Positions 36,783-44,071 of a stretch of DNA of 64,000 nt are shown piece by piece; position 1 is the stretch's first letter; each line of letters opens with the position of its first letter. Both the position numbers and the translations under genes were made by a program. The notes under the pieces are model-generated. The model worked only from the letters and a program-made list of their open reading frames with translations. It was not told where the DNA came from and searched no databases. Origin of the DNA: Escherichia coli (lineage in GTDB: Bacteria > Pseudomonadota > Gammaproteobacteria > Enterobacterales > Enterobacteriaceae). Location: the NCBI RefSeq assembly GCF_036507355.1, contig NZ_AP027877.1, one strand, 5' to 3'.

Positions 36783-37763
36783 ATGAACGCAATAATATCG
36801 CCTGATTATTACTATATTCTTACCGTTGCTGGTCAGTCTAATGCCATGGCGTATGGCGAAGGACTGCCATTACCGGACAGGGAAGATGCGCCTCATCCCA
36901 GAATTAAACAATTAGCGAGATTTGCGCATACGCATCCCGGAGGCCCGTCATGTCACTTTAACGACATTATTCCACTGACTCACTGCCCACACGATGTTCA
37001 GGATATGCAGGGTTATCACCATCCTCTGGCAACGAATCATCAAACACAGTACGGCACCGTTGGCCAGGCACTGCATATAGCACGGAAATTACTGCCCTTT
37101 ATTCCTGATAATGCAGGGGTTCTCATCGTTCCGTGTTGCCGTGGCGGATCGGCTTTTACCGCGGGCAGCGAAGGGACATATTCAGAACGGCACGGAGCCA
37201 GCCATGATGCTTGTCGTTGGGGAACGGATACTCCGCTATACCAGGATTTAGTCAGCAGAACGCGAGCCGCACTGGCAAAAAATCCGCATAACAAATTCCT
37301 CGGCGTATGCTGGATGCAAGGCGAATTTGACTTAATGACCAGTGACTACGCGTCACACCCTCAACACTTTAATCATATGGTTGAAGCCTTTCGTAGGGAT
37401 CTAAAACAATACCATTCTCAGCTTAATAATATTACTGACGCACCGTGGTTTTGCGGCGATACCACCTGGTACTGGAAAGAAAATTTCCCTCATGCGTATG
37501 AAGTTATTTATGGCAATTATCAAAATAATGTTTTAGCCAATATTATTTTCGTCGACTTCCAGCAACAAGGTGAAAGAGGACTGACGAACGCGCCTGATGA
37601 AGACCCGGACGATTTAAGCACGGGATATTACGGTTCAGCGTACCGGTCACCGGAGAACTGGACGACGGCACTGCGAAGCAGTCATTTCAGCACGGCAGCC
37701 CGTCGGGGGATTATTTCTGACAAGTTTGTAGAAGCAATTTTGCAGTTTTGGCGCGAAAGGTGA
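36783..37763 (+). CDS. nanS: 9-O-acetyl-N-acetylneuraminate esterase
   Basis: From MNAIISPDYYYILTVAGQSNAMAYG. Confidence 0.85.
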   Translation: MNAIISPDYYYILTVAGQSNAMAYGEGLPLPDREDAPHPRIKQLARFAHTHPGGPSCHFNDIIPLTHCPHDVQDMQGYHHPLATNHQTQYGTVGQALHIARKLLPFIPDNAGVLIVPCCRGGSAFTAGSEGTYSERHGASHDACRWGTDTPLYQDLVSRTRAALAKNPHNKFLGVCWMQGEFDLMTSDYASHPQHFNHMVEAFRRDLKQYHSQLNNITDAPWFCGDTTWYWKENFPHAYEVIYGNYQNNVLANIIFVDFQQQGERGLTNAPDEDPDDLSTGYYGSAYRSPENWTTALRSSHFSTAARRGIISDKFVEAILQFWRER

Positions 37764-37770
37764 GCGTTCA

Positions 37771-38025
37771 TTAATTTGATTTATTCGCATCCATCAGCGC
37801 TTTTAACTGCTCCGGCGTAAACGGTGGTTTGCGTCGGTGCAACATCGCATGGCAATTAGGGTACACAGGCAGCAAATCATTAACTGGATCCAGCTGGTAA
37901 TCCTCTTTAATGGCTGACAGCGGCACCAGGTGATGCACATGGATAAAGCCTTCAGCGATATCACCATAGATCTTCACCAGATCAACACCGCATATTCCGT
38001 ATGAACCATACGGAGATTTAACCAT
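37771..38025 (-). CDS. Short HNH-nuclease-motif protein (84 aa), possibly a truncated gene
   Basis: HVHHLVPLS...NCHAMLH motif; its start overlaps the divergent next gene on a CATG. Confidence 0.45.
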   Translation of the reverse strand: MVKSPYGSYGICGVDLVKIYGDIAEGFIHVHHLVPLSAIKEDYQLDPVNDLLPVYPNCHAMLHRRKPPFTPEQLKALMDANKSN

Positions 38026-38593
38026 GACCTACAAATACAACCCCTTCTGGCAGCAACGTATTCGTGAGACGGTGCGGCACGCACTGAATGTTCATCCCCG
38101 CCTGACGGCATTGCGGGTTGACCTGCGTCTCCCGGATGTACCGGCAGCAACGGACGCAGCTGTGATATCCCGCTTCATCAATGCCCTGAAAGCCCGAATC
38201 GACGCTTACCAGAAACGTAAGCATCGGGAAGGTAAACGCGTGCATCCCACAACCCTGCATTACGTCTGGGCCCGGGAGTTTGGGGAGTGCAAAGGTAAAA
38301 AACACTATCACCTGATGCTGCTGGTCAACCGGGATACCTGGTGTCGTGCCGGTGATTACCGCGCTCCGGAGTCTCTGGCCGGGATGATTAAACAGGCGTG
38401 GTGCAGTGCCCTGGGAGTGGATGTCGGGTGCCATGCCACGCTGGTGCATTTTCCGGCCTGGCCGGCGGTGTGGCTGGCGCGTAATGATGACACCGGCTTT
38501 CAGCAAGTGCTGGAACGTGCTGACTATCTGGCGAAGGAGTATACCAAAGCTCACTGCACCGGTGAGCGCAATTTTGGCTGTAGCCGGAGTTGA
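38024..38593 (+). CDS. YagK/YfjJ-family (inovirus Gp2-like) island protein
   Basis: 189-aa ORF MTYKYNPFWQQRIRETVRHALNVHPRLTALRVDLRLPD...; family assignment from memory only. Confidence 0.4.
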   Translation: MTYKYNPFWQQRIRETVRHALNVHPRLTALRVDLRLPDVPAATDAAVISRFINALKARIDAYQKRKHREGKRVHPTTLHYVWAREFGECKGKKHYHLMLLVNRDTWCRAGDYRAPESLAGMIKQAWCSALGVDVGCHATLVHFPAWPAVWLARNDDTGFQQVLERADYLAKEYTKAHCTGERNFGCSRS

Positions 38594-38852
38594 GCACGAC
38601 TGGCGCGCCAATATCCGGCAAACCAAAAGTATGGGTTGTTGTCTGGCGGCAACGATGTATCCACTCGCCCACTGACTGTTTTTTACGTCAGTGTTCCATT
38701 GTGTGACAACCACAGTGCTGTAACAGCAACCAGCCTGCTTTACCCAAACTCCAGTCCAGATTTTAACTGAACCGCCATTCACACCCTGACCACGCTGCCC
38801 GTACCGGGACGGCTGTTGCCTGCGTGTCGTCTGGCGGCTAAGGAATATGACT

Positions 38853-39254
38853 ATGTACGCAAAATCCTTTATCGCTCTTGATGGCAACGGACGTCTGACG
38901 GGCGCCCGTACTGCACAGGCCGCACCTTATGCTCACTACACCTGCCACTTGTGTGGCAGTGCACTCAGATACCATCCGCAATACGACACTGAACTTCCCT
39001 GGTTTGAACACACTGACGACAGGCTGACAGAGCACGGTCAACAGTGCCCTTATGTCAGGCCGGAGCGCAGAGAAATACAGTTGATTAAACGTCTGCAGCA
39101 ATTCGTACCGGATGCCTTACCCGTGGTGCGTAAAGCCAGCTGGCACTGCAGACAATGTCACCACGATTATTATGGGGAGCAGTACTGCACACACTGCCAG
39201 ACCGGAGGATTCAGTATTCCCCGGACAACTCAGGAGGAAATATGCGAATTCTGA
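38853..39254 (+). CDS. Cys-rich (double CxxC) hypothetical protein, paralogue A
   Basis: CHLCG...PWFEH...CRQCHHDYYGEQYCTHCQTG; RBS-like AAGGAA upstream of the ATG at 38853. Confidence 0.45.
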   Translation: MYAKSFIALDGNGRLTGARTAQAAPYAHYTCHLCGSALRYHPQYDTELPWFEHTDDRLTEHGQQCPYVRPERREIQLIKRLQQFVPDALPVVRKASWHCRQCHHDYYGEQYCTHCQTGGFSIPRTTQEEICEF

Positions 39255-39676
39255 ACTGTTATATGGCGAATGACAGCAAAGGCCATTTTGTTACGGCGAA
39301 AGAAGCTGCGAAGCACAACCGACAGGACGTTTTGTGCTGTGTGTCCTGTGGATGCCCGTTAACACTTCAGCGGGGCAATGACGGACAACCACCGTGGTTT
39401 GAACATGACCAGATGACTGTCGCTGAAAAAATCCTGCTGCGATGTACCTGGCTTGACCCGGCGGAGAAAGAGGCCCGTCGTTTGCATCTGCAGGGCATGA
39501 CGGTTCCGGATTATACGGTGAAGGTGAGAAAGTGGTTTTGTGTGATGTGTGACGAAGATTATGAGGGGGAAAAGTGCTGCCCACGCTGCGGTACCGGGGT
39601 ATACAGCAGGGCGTGGGGGCGGCAGGAGGTGCCGTCGGAAGATGCCAGGGCTGATAATCCGTTACAGAGGCTGTAA
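39242..39676 (+). CDS. Cys-rich (double CxxC) hypothetical protein, paralogue B
   Basis: CVSCGCP...PWFEH...CVMCDEDYEGEKCCPRCGTG; AGGAGG RBS inside the 3' end of paralogue A; 13-bp overlap. Confidence 0.45.
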   Translation: MRILNCYMANDSKGHFVTAKEAAKHNRQDVLCCVSCGCPLTLQRGNDGQPPWFEHDQMTVAEKILLRCTWLDPAEKEARRLHLQGMTVPDYTVKVRKWFCVMCDEDYEGEKCCPRCGTGVYSRAWGRQEVPSEDARADNPLQRL

Positions 39677-40030
39677 TGGTTGCCTCCGGAGCAGTTTGCG
39701 GTGATGCCTTTCCCGGGAATGGATTGCCAGTGCGGGGACTGTGGAGCTTAATTCCGGTGTTGGTGGCCTTTCCGTTGATTTTATGCCAACAGCCCCCTGT
39801 GACTGACAGGCTGCCTCGTCATTCCATTCGTATCTCCAGTAACAGGGGGTTGTATTGTATTTTATTGTGCCGGTTCAGGTGTGCGTTTCCCGGCGCGTCT
39901 GCACCGGCTTAACCAAATTCAACAGGGATAAAATAGTGGTAAGCGTACAGCCTGAACCGTCTGGTCAGAATCTGACGAATTAGACAAAGTGGTGTCCACC
40001 AAATAAGTAGTGGGAACCAAAGTGTCAGAT

Positions 40031-40411
40031 ATGCAGAAAAATGTGACTCCCGGCAGGCGAAAAGGCTGCCCTAATTATCCTCCCGAATTTAAACAGCTGC
40101 TCGTTGCTGCCTCCTGTGAACCCGGGATATCCATCTCAAAACTTGCTCTTGAAAATGGCATTAACGCCAATCTGTTGTTCAAATGGCGACAACAATGGCG
40201 CGAGGGAAAGCTGCTATTACCTTCTTCAGAGAGCCCCCAGCTACTTCCTGTGACTCTCGATGCAGCTGCCGAACAGCCAGAATCGCTCGCAGAGGACCCG
40301 GAAACCCTCAGTATCAGCTGTGAGGTAACGTTCCGGCACGGGACGCTCCGCTTCAATGGCAATGTCAGCGAAAAGCTCCTGACTCTGCTGATACAGGAAC
40401 TGAAGCGATGA
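40031..40411 (+). CDS. IS66 accessory protein (orfA)
   Basis: MQKNVTPGRRKGCPNYPPEFKQLLVAASCEPGISISKLALENGINANLLFKWRQQW (helix-turn-helix-like). Confidence 0.7.
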   Translation: MQKNVTPGRRKGCPNYPPEFKQLLVAASCEPGISISKLALENGINANLLFKWRQQWREGKLLLPSSESPQLLPVTLDAAAEQPESLAEDPETLSISCEVTFRHGTLRFNGNVSEKLLTLLIQELKR

Positions 40412-40755
40412 TCCCGTTACCTTCCGGGACCAAAATTTGGCTGGTTGCCGGTATCACCGATATGAGAAATGGCTTCAACGGCCTGGCTGCGAAAGTACAA
40501 ACGGCGCTGAAAGACGATCCCATGTCCGGCCATGTTTTCATTTTCCGGGGCCGCAGCGGCAGTCAGGTTAAACTGCTGTGGTCCACCGGTGACGGACTGT
40601 GCCTCCTGACCAAACGGCTGGAGCGTGGGCGCTTCGCCTGGCCGTCAGCCCGTGATGGCAAAGTGTTCCTTACGCAGGCGCAGCTGGCGATGCTGCTGGA
40701 AGGTATCGACTGGCGACAGCCCAAGCGGCTGCTGACCTCCCTGACCATGCTGTAA
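40408..40755 (+). CDS. IS66 TnpB-like protein (orfB)
   Basis: MIPLPSGTKIWLVAGITDMRNGFNGLAAKVQ...; ATGA overlap with orfA. Confidence 0.75.
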   Translation: MIPLPSGTKIWLVAGITDMRNGFNGLAAKVQTALKDDPMSGHVFIFRGRSGSQVKLLWSTGDGLCLLTKRLERGRFAWPSARDGKVFLTQAQLAMLLEGIDWRQPKRLLTSLTML

Positions 40756-40804
40756 ATCTCTTTATCCTGGTTGTCACAGAATAAGCCCGGTAAAATACGG
40801 GCTT

Positions 40805-42190
40805 ATGAACGACATCTCTTCTGACGACATCTTCCTGCTAAAACAGCGCCTGGCCGAACAGGAAGCGCTGATCCACGCCCTGCAGGAAAAGCTGAGCAAC
40901 CGGGAGCGCGAAATAGACCATCTGCAGGCGCAGCTGGATAAACTCCGCCGGATGAACTTCGGCAGTCGTTCCGAAAAAGTCTCCCGCCGTATCGCACAAA
41001 TGGAAGCCGATCTGAACCGGCTTCAGAAAGAGAGCGATACGCTGACTGGTAGGGTGTATGACCCGGCAGTACAGCGTCCGTTGCGTCAGACCCGCACCCG
41101 TAAGCCGTTCCCTGAATCACTACCCCGTGACGAAAAGCGACTGTTGCCTGCGGCGCCGTGCTGCCCGAACTGCGGCGGTTCACTGAGCTATCTGGGCGAG
41201 GATACCGCCGAACAGCTGGAGTTGATGCGTAGCGCCTTCCGGGTTATCCGGACGGTACGGGAAAAACATGCCTGTACTCAGTGCGATGCCATCGTGCAGG
41301 CACCTGCACCTTCGCGGCCCATCGAGCGGGGTATCGCCGGACCGGGGCTGCTGGCCCGCGTGCTGACCTCGAAGTATGCAGAGCACACCCCGCTGTATTG
41401 CCAGTCAGAAATATACGGCCGGCAAGGTGTGGAGCTGAGCCGTTCACTGCTGTCGGGCTGGGTGGATGCATGCTGCCGGCTGCTGTCTCCGCTGGAAGAG
41501 GCGCTTCATGGCTATGTCATGACTGACGGCAAACTCCATGCCGATGATACCCCGGTCCAGGTACTGCTGCCGGGTAATAAGAAGACGAAGACCGGGCGGT
41601 TGTGGGCGTATGTTCGTGATGACCGCAATGCCGGGTCAGCGTTGGCACCTGCAGTGTGGTTCGCTTACAGCCCGGACAGAAAAGGCATCCATCCGCAGAC
41701 TCATCTTGCTTGCTTCAGCGGTGTGCTGCAAGCGGATGCGTACGCCGGGTTCAACGAGCTGTATCGCAATGGTGGGATAACGGAAGCTGCCTGCTGGGCT
41801 CATGCCCGCCGAAAGATCCACGATGTGCACGTCCGCATCCCGTCAGCACTGACGGAAGAAGCCCTAGAGCAGATCGGTCAGTTGTACGCCATAGAGGCGG
41901 ATATAAGGGGAATGCCGGCAGAGCAGCGGCTTGCTGAACGTCAGCGAAAAACGAAACCGCTGTTGAAATCCCTGGAAAGCTGGTTGCGTGAAAAGATGAA
42001 GACCCTGTTCTTCGGCTCTGGCCATGGTGGTGAGCGGGGAGCGCTACTGTACAGCCTGATCGGGACGTGCAAACTGAATGACGTGGATCCAGAAAGCTAC
42101 CTTCGCCATGTGCCTGGCGTCATAGCAGACTGGCCGGTCAACCGGGTCAGCGAACTGCTTCCGTGGCGCATAGCACTGCCAGCTGAATAA
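40805..42190 (+). CDS. IS66-family transposase (orfC)
   Basis: 461-aa ORF with an N-terminal coiled coil and a CxxC...CxxC zinc-ribbon region. Confidence 0.75.
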   Translation: MNDISSDDIFLLKQRLAEQEALIHALQEKLSNREREIDHLQAQLDKLRRMNFGSRSEKVSRRIAQMEADLNRLQKESDTLTGRVYDPAVQRPLRQTRTRKPFPESLPRDEKRLLPAAPCCPNCGGSLSYLGEDTAEQLELMRSAFRVIRTVREKHACTQCDAIVQAPAPSRPIERGIAGPGLLARVLTSKYAEHTPLYCQSEIYGRQGVELSRSLLSGWVDACCRLLSPLEEALHGYVMTDGKLHADDTPVQVLLPGNKKTKTGRLWAYVRDDRNAGSALAPAVWFAYSPDRKGIHPQTHLACFSGVLQADAYAGFNELYRNGGITEAACWAHARRKIHDVHVRIPSALTEEALEQIGQLYAIEADIRGMPAEQRLAERQRKTKPLLKSLESWLREKMKTLFFGSGHGGERGALLYSLIGTCKLNDVDPESYLRHVPGVIADWPVNRVSELLPWRIALPAE

Positions 42191-42428: not shown

Positions 42429-43787
42429 TTATTTCAACGCTTCCGGCAGCGTCACAATCCACAGTTCACTGTCAGACTCCGGTTTCTCCAGTGGCTTCAC
42501 TCTGAGGGTCGTTTCAACCTGCTTGTCGTCAAGCGTCAGCTTTCCTTCCGCGTTCACCCGATAATCCTTGAATGTCTTGCCCTCGACCGGATGTTGCATC
42601 GCCACCTTCACGCCAAAGTCGTTATCGTTCGCCACCGCCAGCGTTTTGCTGTCGATCAGCGCCAACCCTTCAGCCTTCTCCTGCTGCCAGCCCAAGGAGC
42701 GCAGATCAACAACCTGCGTTTTCTGCGCAAGGGTAATGCCGCGCTGTGACAGGGTTTTCTCATCATCAAACTCCGGATACTCACCCGGCTTGTCGAAGCC
42801 TGACAGGTCGCTCGCCTTATTGAGATCGACCTCGTAAATCAGGTTACGCATTCTGTTGTTTTTATCTCTTCCCTGTTCGATCAGCAGGATGTGCTGGTTA
42901 TCGAGCGCCACGATGTCTCCGATTTTAGCGTCGCTGTTTTTGCTGTAGGCCGCGCTGTCGATAGGATAACCGTACATCGCGGTTTTTCCGCTTGCCGGAT
43001 CGAAGCTCACCAGACGCGTAAACAGCGCCTTTTTCTTGCTCTTAGCGTCGATATCCAGCGTACTTTGCACGGCGACAATAATACGCCCGTCCGGCATACG
43101 GGTGAGGCCTTCAAAGCCGCGGTTCGCCTGACGCCATTTGAGGATATTTGGCAAACCGCCCGCAATCGCTTTTTCCCCTTCCGCCGCCTGCGGACCGTGG
43201 ATTGCCAGGATTTTCCCTTTACTGTCGATGTTAATCAGGAACGGGCCATACTCATCGCACAGCCAGTAACCTCCTTTACCATCCGGAGTGATCCCTTCCG
43301 TATCCAGCCCGCGATTATCCCCCTTCAGTCTATGTAACGTGTCGCTGAAGGCCACTTCATTGGTGGAGCCAATCACGTCGCTTGCCAGCGGCAGACCGTT
43401 GATCGCGCCTTTATCGTCATGCAGAGGACGGGGATCGATGGCCTCCGCTTTGCCGTTTTGTACACGAATCGTCATCAGCAGCGGCGCGAAATCTGGCGTA
43501 ACGAAAATTTTAGTTTCGTTTTTCCCCTCTTTCGGTGAATCCGCGTTCGGACCGCGATCGGTAATGGTTGCGAATGTCAGGGCATCGCCCTGTTTACCGG
43601 TGAACAGCAGGCCAGAACCTATCCCAACCGGAAGGCCGTTCGGGAATGCACTGGCAAATGCGCCGGCGTAGTTCACGTGCGTGCCTTCTGGAAAACTGAC
43701 GACATAGCGCTCAGCCGTAGGTTGTGCCGCCAGGGCAGAGAAAGAGAGCGTACAACCGATTAGCACGGGAATAATTTTTCTTTTCAT
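42429..43787 (-). CDS. Secreted beta-propeller protein, phytase-like esterase family (tentative)
   Basis: Signal peptide MKRKIIPVLIGCTLSFSALAA; repeated blades with TEGI / FEGL / AEGL and DEYGP motifs. Confidence 0.45.
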   Translation of the reverse strand: MKRKIIPVLIGCTLSFSALAAQPTAERYVVSFPEGTHVNYAGAFASAFPNGLPVGIGSGLLFTGKQGDALTFATITDRGPNADSPKEGKNETKIFVTPDFAPLLMTIRVQNGKAEAIDPRPLHDDKGAINGLPLASDVIGSTNEVAFSDTLHRLKGDNRGLDTEGITPDGKGGYWLCDEYGPFLINIDSKGKILAIHGPQAAEGEKAIAGGLPNILKWRQANRGFEGLTRMPDGRIIVAVQSTLDIDAKSKKKALFTRLVSFDPASGKTAMYGYPIDSAAYSKNSDAKIGDIVALDNQHILLIEQGRDKNNRMRNLIYEVDLNKASDLSGFDKPGEYPEFDDEKTLSQRGITLAQKTQVVDLRSLGWQQEKAEGLALIDSKTLAVANDNDFGVKVAMQHPVEGKTFKDYRVNAEGKLTLDDKQVETTLRVKPLEKPESDSELWIVTLPEALK

Positions 43788-44071
43788 ATTGTTAGCATCC
43801 ATAAAGTGAAGATCACACTACACCATAAAGAAGAAACGAGTCAGGAAAATGACATCGAATGGCAACATGCGCGGGCCTGAGGCCAAAGAAATGTAAAACA
43901 CTGTTGTTATTTGTAACAACGGAAACATTTACGGAAATTATTTGTCTTTCTTCGTGATCAAAAATGCTGTGTCTTGTTGGATTGGAGTGATGAGGGCTGC
44001 GTTTAGGAAACGCCCTATATTGTACGGTTGCATTATCGCGGTAGGGGTAATGCACGTGTCAGTATGATGAG

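Follow-up and report, generated by a model that had tools for sequence, protein, structure and literature searches.

The Ogr/Delta proteins of P2 and P4 are transcription activators and small Cys4 zinc proteins, and in the Delta protein of P4 two Ogr-like units are covalently joined in tandem. CoiA of Bacillota is a structure-specific DNA endonuclease of the PD-(D/E)XK type; it resolves the D-loop formed in transformation, and its N-terminus has a putative C2H2 zinc finger (bioRxiv 10.1101/2024.02.06.579203). Among genomic islands, a related class in Pseudomonas has integrase, AlpA, Gp2-like and RadC genes as its core (bioRxiv 10.1101/2024.08.29.610337). The table published for the SRL pathogenicity island (SRL PAI) of Shigella lists a phytase-like esterase (orf34), IS66 (orf35-37), an entry with 'no similarity' (orf38), YfjJ/Gp2 (orf39), Hha and Vis/AlpA (PMC6980539). 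Here we describe two adjacent genes, A (ZnR-A) and B (ZnR-B), carried by a stretch of 64,000 nucleotides of Escherichia coli (contig NZ_AP027877.1, assembly GCF_036507355.1), hereafter called the window. To the existing description of their family we add the homology of its PWFEH domain to the CoiA finger, a conserved gene module, Gp2 - AlpA - ZnR-A - ZnR-B - Gp2b - DUF2913, and a conserved leader upstream of A.

The locus resembles each of these systems in part. Like the Ogr/Delta proteins, A and B appear to be small Cys4 zinc proteins of P4-related elements with duplicated units, but there is no sequence or profile match between the two groups and the fold of the N-terminal domain differs. 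CoiA (PF25164 and PF06054) has a nuclease domain, whereas A and B carry a helix and a C4 ribbon behind the finger; the first His of the CoiA HFAH motif is a Trp in A and B; and CoiA belongs to competence regulons of Bacillota, whereas the A/B family is found in islands of Enterobacterales. The order of orf34 to orf46 in the SRL PAI of Shigella flexneri (Luck et al. 2001; re-annotated in PMC6980539) equals that of the window when this is followed leftward starting at the esterase gene, the part with the ZnR genes, IS66 and the esterase matching orf34-39. However, the SRL annotation has one hypothetical ORF where the window has two overlapping genes, and the portion of the SRL island left of Gp2 is absent from the window.

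Two overlapping paralogues of a catalogued family

A and B are real genes, co-oriented, overlapping and conserved (Table 1). A sequence-only reading of this DNA had described an overlap of 13 bp, with the ribosome-binding site of the second gene inside the first, and both features are present as described. The overlap and the internal Shine-Dalgarno sequence suggest that translation of the two genes is coupled, as the same reading had proposed, and that both paralogues are made together. Its size for A (133 aa) was right, while its 145 aa for B had counted the stop codon, the protein being of 144 aa. The 13-nt overlap is also present in Salmonella (L002), Siccibacter, Superficieibacter, Tenebrionibacter and on a Klebsiella plasmid (L035), the loci concerned including L013-L017. 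A second candidate ATG for gene A lies at 38847. We place the start of A at 38853 because the spacing of the upstream AAGGA sequence suits only this codon and because the orthologues all start with M[YF]AKSF; the RefSeq start is likewise 38853, and AAGG is kept across the aligned upstream regions.

Pairwise alignment of A and B by BLASTP gave 31% identity over 125 aa (E 2e-15), and the two proteins have the same Pfam architecture, in agreement with their initial description as tandem paralogues. The first domain is DUF7828 (PF25165), matched by A at E 2.4e-31 (residues 2-87, positions 1-87 of the 87 in the model) and by B at E 9.3e-31. The second is Zn_ribbon_11 (PF11682, formerly DUF3279), matched at E 8.4e-9 by A and 1.7e-18 by B, with four conserved Cys spaced CxxC-x9-CxxC. 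DUF7828 was matched by all of 44 aligned homologues and Zn_ribbon_11 by 43 of them. Four positions, C31, C34, H53 and C99, do not vary among these 44 diverse family members, and F51, C65, W97, C102, Y106, G108, C112, C115 and G118 are conserved in at least 90%. The spacing of the Cys residues and of the PWFEH motif is conserved throughout this set. The motif reported for the second Cys cluster is indeed common to both genes, with a spacing that has to be corrected to W-x-C-x2-C-x2-DY-x-GE-x2-C-x2-C-x-TG.

Both genes evolve under purifying selection. Across genera, non-synonymous differences amount to 0.19-0.46 per site versus 0.65-0.86 for synonymous differences, which are saturated; the ratio of the two rates (omega, dN/dS) is ~0.13-0.36 where estimable, and about 0.23-0.36 for gene B. 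The N-terminus of A-type proteins is nearly unchanged between genera. ZnR-B alleles, for their part, split abruptly past residue ~128 (window ~39628-39676), just beyond the zinc ribbon, and many E. coli genomes match ZnR-B only as far as window position ~39627. An origin of this allele-specific tail from the end of the neighbouring IS66 element was ruled out, as 39540-39800 is single-copy DNA.

The family is already catalogued in Pfam, as DUF7828 plus Zn_ribbon_11, and in RefSeq, where 100%-identical E. coli proteins with the same coordinates are named 'putative zinc ribbon protein' (A, WP_000270962) and 'zinc-ribbon domain-containing protein' (B, WP_001221615). As the exact proteins are moreover very common, the pair is not novel as an object. 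UniProt names relatives Ybl85, DUF3279 or, erroneously, 'DNA-directed RNA polymerase beta subunit'. The earlier statement that no function is known for the family agrees with our searches: A and B had no match in NCBIfam, PHROGs or PADLOC, searches of PDB sequences, by single sequence as well as by profile, brought no significant match, and nothing relevant was found in the literature on DUF7828, DUF3279/Zn_ribbon_11, Ybl85 or the two WP accessions. The family is small: when 1.84 billion representative proteins were scanned exhaustively with HMMER, 288 clusters were returned at E <=1e-3, many of them fragments. Named matches and fetched loci were overwhelmingly from Enterobacterales, the few other labels being contigs of metagenome-assembled genomes or single fragments, and the top 50 Foldseek matches in AFDB50 were all family members. 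The K-12 genes yoeG and yoeH, considered as possible fragments of the family, were ruled out by the lack of any tblastn match.

A CoiA-like finger joined to a zinc ribbon

From the alignment of 44 sequences AlphaFold2 gave a confident model of A with two domains, a mean predicted local distance difference test score (pLDDT) of 90 and a predicted template modelling score (pTM) of 0.62. Residues 1-87 form an N-terminal beta/alpha domain whose finger contains C31, C34, W50-F-E-H53 and C65, and the C-terminal part is a three-stranded zinc ribbon with C99, C102, C112 and C115. Of the two zinc ribbons proposed at first, the C-terminal C4 ribbon stands, and the N-terminal CxxC...PWFEH region is instead a CoiA_N-like zinc-finger domain. 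Both proteins are predicted from these residues to bind zinc, and the nearly invariant C65 is a plausible candidate for the fourth ligand of the finger.

The relation to CoiA appeared in several comparisons. Sub-threshold Pfam matches recur among the 44 members, to CoiA_N in 8 and to DUF7830 in 7, and genuine streptococcal CoiA N-terminal fragments have precomputed matches to both CoiA_N (PF25164) and DUF7828. When the family was compared by hhalign with an alignment of real CoiA N-termini, the match reached 94.5% probability (E 7.4e-8). It pairs residues 5-55 of A with residues 1-49 of CoiA, places PWFEH opposite THFAH, and makes the CxxC pairs coincide. Judged by these profile comparisons, the N-terminal domain of A and B is homologous to the N-terminal zinc finger of CoiA, and both proteins carry a finger of the CoiA_N type. 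They are nevertheless not members of the CoiA family, because they lack the PD-(D/E)XK nuclease domain (PF06054, matched by 0 of 44 family members) and spend their chain of 133 or 144 aa on the helix and the ribbon.

A weak match to RPB9 (E 0.013) was rejected as Cys-driven; RPB9 and RPB12 similarities were at the level expected by chance for Cys-rich sequences; a comparison with RPB9/TFIIS-like two-ribbon proteins gave no significant match to both ribbons.

A conserved module in AlpA-type islands

We compared gene order in the window and 33 further loci from at least 15 genera, using open reading frame (ORF) calling together with hidden Markov model and phmmer searches. The loci came from E. 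coli, Salmonella, Serratia, Klebsiella (a plasmid), Siccibacter, Superficieibacter, Tenebrionibacter, Trabulsiella, Buttiauxella, Citrobacter, Yersinia, Budvicia, Leclercia, Enterobacter and Enterobacillus. The genes of the module lie on one strand in the order Gp2 (HUH Rep-like) - AlpA - ZnR-A - ZnR-B - Gp2b - DUF2913. A same-strand gene of the Gp2 family is present upstream of ZnR-A in every adequately flanked locus but one (L031), which has a ZnR fragment of 56 aa and no detected neighbour. In most genera Gp2 and ZnR-A are separated by AlpA. In most loci ZnR-A is followed by a second family member, the junction being the 13-nt overlap, a 4-nt overlap or a gap of 60-90 nt; a divergent second Gp2-like gene (Gp2b) comes next, with a DUF2913 gene as well in several loci. 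The cleanest example is on a Klebsiella IncFIB/HI1B plasmid, which reads Gp2 - AlpA - ZnR - ZnR - 'inovirus-type Gp2' - DUF2913. With Gp2 and AlpA found as their neighbours, A and B are backbone genes of the island and not cargo.

The Gp2 protein of the window, identified by its YagK_YfjJ_C domain (Table 1), also has a weaker Pfam match to the rolling-circle family REP_ORF2-G2P (E 2.5e-5), and its sequence contains an HUH-like motif, HYHLMLLV, and a YLAKEY motif. Gp2b proteins, of the Pfam UCP030791 type (L014 7906-8454, L002 8810-9391, L035 8900-9466), lack the HUH-like HYH and read ERKILLL or TGRMLLL in place of the HYHLMLL of the upstream Gp2. The module therefore combines one Rep-like paralogue that may be active with one that may be inactive.

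Two variants of the ZnR genes were observed. In Buttiauxella and Enterobacter the second position is taken by a third ZnR subtype with the N-terminus MQFRTIRTA... (L020 7453-7896; L028 6498-6932), so that the A-type protein, itself conserved, has an exchangeable partner. In Serratia sp. Ag1 (L019 1592-4234) five family ORFs or fragments are interleaved with a Gp2b-type gene, an array that points to a module duplicated and degraded more than once.

The non-coding leader directly upstream of A, of ~80 nt, is 75-92% identical in nucleotide sequence to its counterparts in Klebsiella, Superficieibacter, Serratia, Siccibacter and Yersinia. It exceeds its genes in conservation across genera, even though synonymous sites are saturated. 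Its core element, GGGACGG-N-CTG-N-TG, is present as a single copy per locus, always ~45 nt before the start of A. The leader is not coding, because it keeps no constant reading frame with respect to A. It contains a small hairpin (CTGCCC-loop-GGG) that is conserved. A structured RNA was rejected for now, given an RNAalifold energy of -5.9 kcal/mol with almost no covariation and an RNAfold z-score of -0.73; an Rfam scan of 37000-40500 gave no match. Nor was a sigma-70 consensus promoter detected in 37700-40100. The leader could be a promoter (activator-dependent), an operator, or a DNA site for module proteins or for DNA processing.

A leader so highly conserved suggests tight regulation, and A and B lie directly 3' of the regulator AlpA in most genera. 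Both facts, together with the small size and non-enzymatic nature of the two zinc proteins, would suit island zinc-finger transcription factors, Ogr/Delta-like in logic, or co-factors of AlpA. Such proteins would switch on island or helper genes by contact with RNA polymerase or promoter DNA, and would process no DNA. We consider this unlikely, though it deserves more weight than the other alternatives discussed below. Neither A and B (at E up to 10) nor any of the 44 members matched Ogr_Delta in Pfam, no other DNA-binding transcription-factor family was matched, the resemblance to RNA polymerase subunits is the chance one described above, and CoiA, the homologue with the strongest support, is an enzyme that processes DNA and no transcription factor.

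At least 3,786 of 5,426 complete E. coli genomes match the pair, nearly all in the chromosome, and the A/B region is present at >=99% identity in 1,786 records. Matches to the ZnR family are rare in plasmids (33 among 72,556 records), and none was found among 50,697 phage records. The host elements are AlpA/P4-integrase-type islands, for instance the SRL PAI of Shigella and the Ag43/CP4-44-like islands of E. coli. In E. coli, islands with the pair also carry Ag43, YeeP-like GTPase, YfjI, an AlpA-like helix-turn-helix protein, antirestriction, DUF932 and RadC/YeeS genes. The survey of homologues and neighbours that the sequence-only reading had called for thus shows an island module spread across Enterobacterales.

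Islands of this kind hold defence genes close to the module. SIR2_2 and DUF4365 genes lie beside it in Serratia, and dnd and BREX genes lie near E. coli copies. The pair sits at the edge of the backbone where it adjoins variable cargo, and a functional screen for defence systems of E. coli has yielded a protein with a CoiA domain (PMC9519451). A and B might accordingly be conflict genes serving anti-phage defence, anti-defence or competition between mobile elements, for example as a decoy that lacks a nuclease and blocks a DNA-processing enzyme, CoiA-like or otherwise, whether this belongs to an invader or to the host. This reading strikes us as improbable. The PADLOC-DB v2 defence components match none of A, B and Gp2, the pair lies in the conserved backbone with fixed neighbours and outside the variable cargo, and neither protein has an effector domain. 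The large excess of synonymous over non-synonymous changes and the near-constant A-type N-terminus are unlike fast-evolving conflict genes, and the family is absent from the phage genomes searched.

A possible role for the pair, and the state of the locus

Our preferred reading, which we put forward tentatively, is that A and B form a non-catalytic recognition pair, or adaptor, serving the AlpA/Gp2 DNA-processing module of the island. Each would be a non-enzymatic zinc protein consisting of a CoiA_N-like finger (CxxC ... WFEH ... C), a connecting helix and a C4 ribbon. The two would be produced in matched amounts and act jointly, probably as a hetero-oligomer. Since they have no catalytic domain, they would act by recognition, as a zinc-dependent unit directed at partner proteins or, by analogy with the finger of the structure-specific nuclease CoiA, at single-stranded or branched DNA. 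Nucleic-acid binding, already suggested by the first reading of the sequence, is plausible. The processes served would be those run by AlpA and Gp2, namely the control of island excision, expression, replication or mobilisation, in which the HUH-like Gp2 proteins would plausibly nick for replication or mobilisation.

Several observations weigh against this proposal. Islands of Serratia marcescens carry a single ZnR gene, so that a heteromer cannot be obligatory for the family. Split or truncated ZnR copies are frequent in islands and must therefore be dispensable to the host. In the window itself the module is incomplete, being devoid of AlpA, Gp2b and DUF2913 and of the native DNA upstream of Gp2. 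When A and B were modelled with AlphaFold2 as one chain with a flexible linker, from 8 paired sequences, the result was of low confidence (pLDDT of 54.5, pTM of 0.33) and lends no support to a heteromer. The calculated isoelectric points of A and B are near neutral and vary between orthologues, which is untypical of avid DNA binders, so simple or non-specific electrostatic DNA binding is not indicated. Finally, the likeness to CoiA_N contributes little detail to a mechanism, as the role of the finger in CoiA is itself not established.

A more far-reaching version would unite the two ZnR and the two Gp2 paralogues in a previously unrecognised DNA-processing machine that starts excised islands of the AlpA/P4-integrase type on rolling-circle replication or mobilisation, with the CoiA_N-like fingers recognising a structured DNA site, possibly the leader and its hairpin, and delivering the HUH nickase to it. 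We regard this as a long shot.

The pair is common in E. coli and other Enterobacterales, within islands that bear adhesins and genes for iron uptake, resistance and defence. How such islands replicate or move after AlpA-driven excision is poorly understood, and the fixed module, with its link to the finger of a structure-specific nuclease, offers a concrete and testable entry point. The outcome is a refined annotation of a catalogued domain of unknown function, and not a new kind of system.

The island setting of the pair, next to a YagK/YfjJ-like gene and an HNH fragment, had been recognised from the letters alone and is borne out by the neighbouring genes (Table 1). Homology to the island begins at 37993/37994, 30 nt upstream of the Gp2 ATG, and the left side consists of nanS and HNH. 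This junction was found in 0 of 5,426 complete E. coli genomes, though each side matches at 100% identity. The native upstream region of Gp2 has been lost, and downstream of B an IS66-family element occupies the place where other genera have Gp2b-DUF2913. The module in the window is a remnant in which A, B and the leader are intact.

Truncation of the island at this junction and the IS66 downstream, like the many split or truncated homologues elsewhere, could mean that A and B are themselves decaying and have no present function in this genome. We hold this to be very improbable. Both ORFs are intact, identical to WP_000270962 and WP_001221615 and represented at >=99% identity in the many records counted above; selection across genera is purifying; and conservation extends to the overlap, the Shine-Dalgarno sequence and the leader.

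Table 1. Positions of the genes and sequence elements of the locus in the window.
Feature	Position	Strand	Remarks
Gene A (ZnR-A)	38853-39254	+	133 aa; DUF7828 residues 2-87, helix, C4 zinc ribbon
Gene B (ZnR-B)	39242-39676	+	144 aa; paralogue, two-domain architecture as in A
A/B overlap	39242-39254	+	13 nt; stop region of A and start of B; translational-coupling arrangement
AGGAGG, Shine-Dalgarno of gene B	39232-39237	+	within gene A, 4 nt before ATG; read from sequence
AAGGA, Shine-Dalgarno-like, gene A	38840-38844	+	8 nt before ATG 38853; read from sequence
Leader, non-coding, directly upstream of A	38764-38846	+	core GGGACGGCTGTTGCCTGCGTGT at 38806-38827
Gp2-family (YagK/YfjJ) gene	38024-38593	+	189 aa; YagK_YfjJ_C E 1.1e-47; RefSeq 'inovirus Gp2 family protein'
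HNH endonuclease gene, truncated	37771-38025	-	84-aa ORF
IS66-family element	40031-42190		downstream of B; tnpA 40031-40411, tnpB 40408-40755, tnpC 40805-42190
Phytase-like esterase gene	42429-43802	-	
Antisense ORF	38018-38887	-	289 aa
Inverted repeat	39789-39853		17-nt arms, 31-nt spacer
Terminator-like site, weak	39832-39850		

Two minor features were noted. The antisense ORF on the minus strand, which runs opposite Gp2 and the leader, had no database support in the searches run and is probably spurious. About 110 nt past ZnR-B lies an inverted repeat whose arms are 88% complementary and which overlaps a weak terminator-like site.

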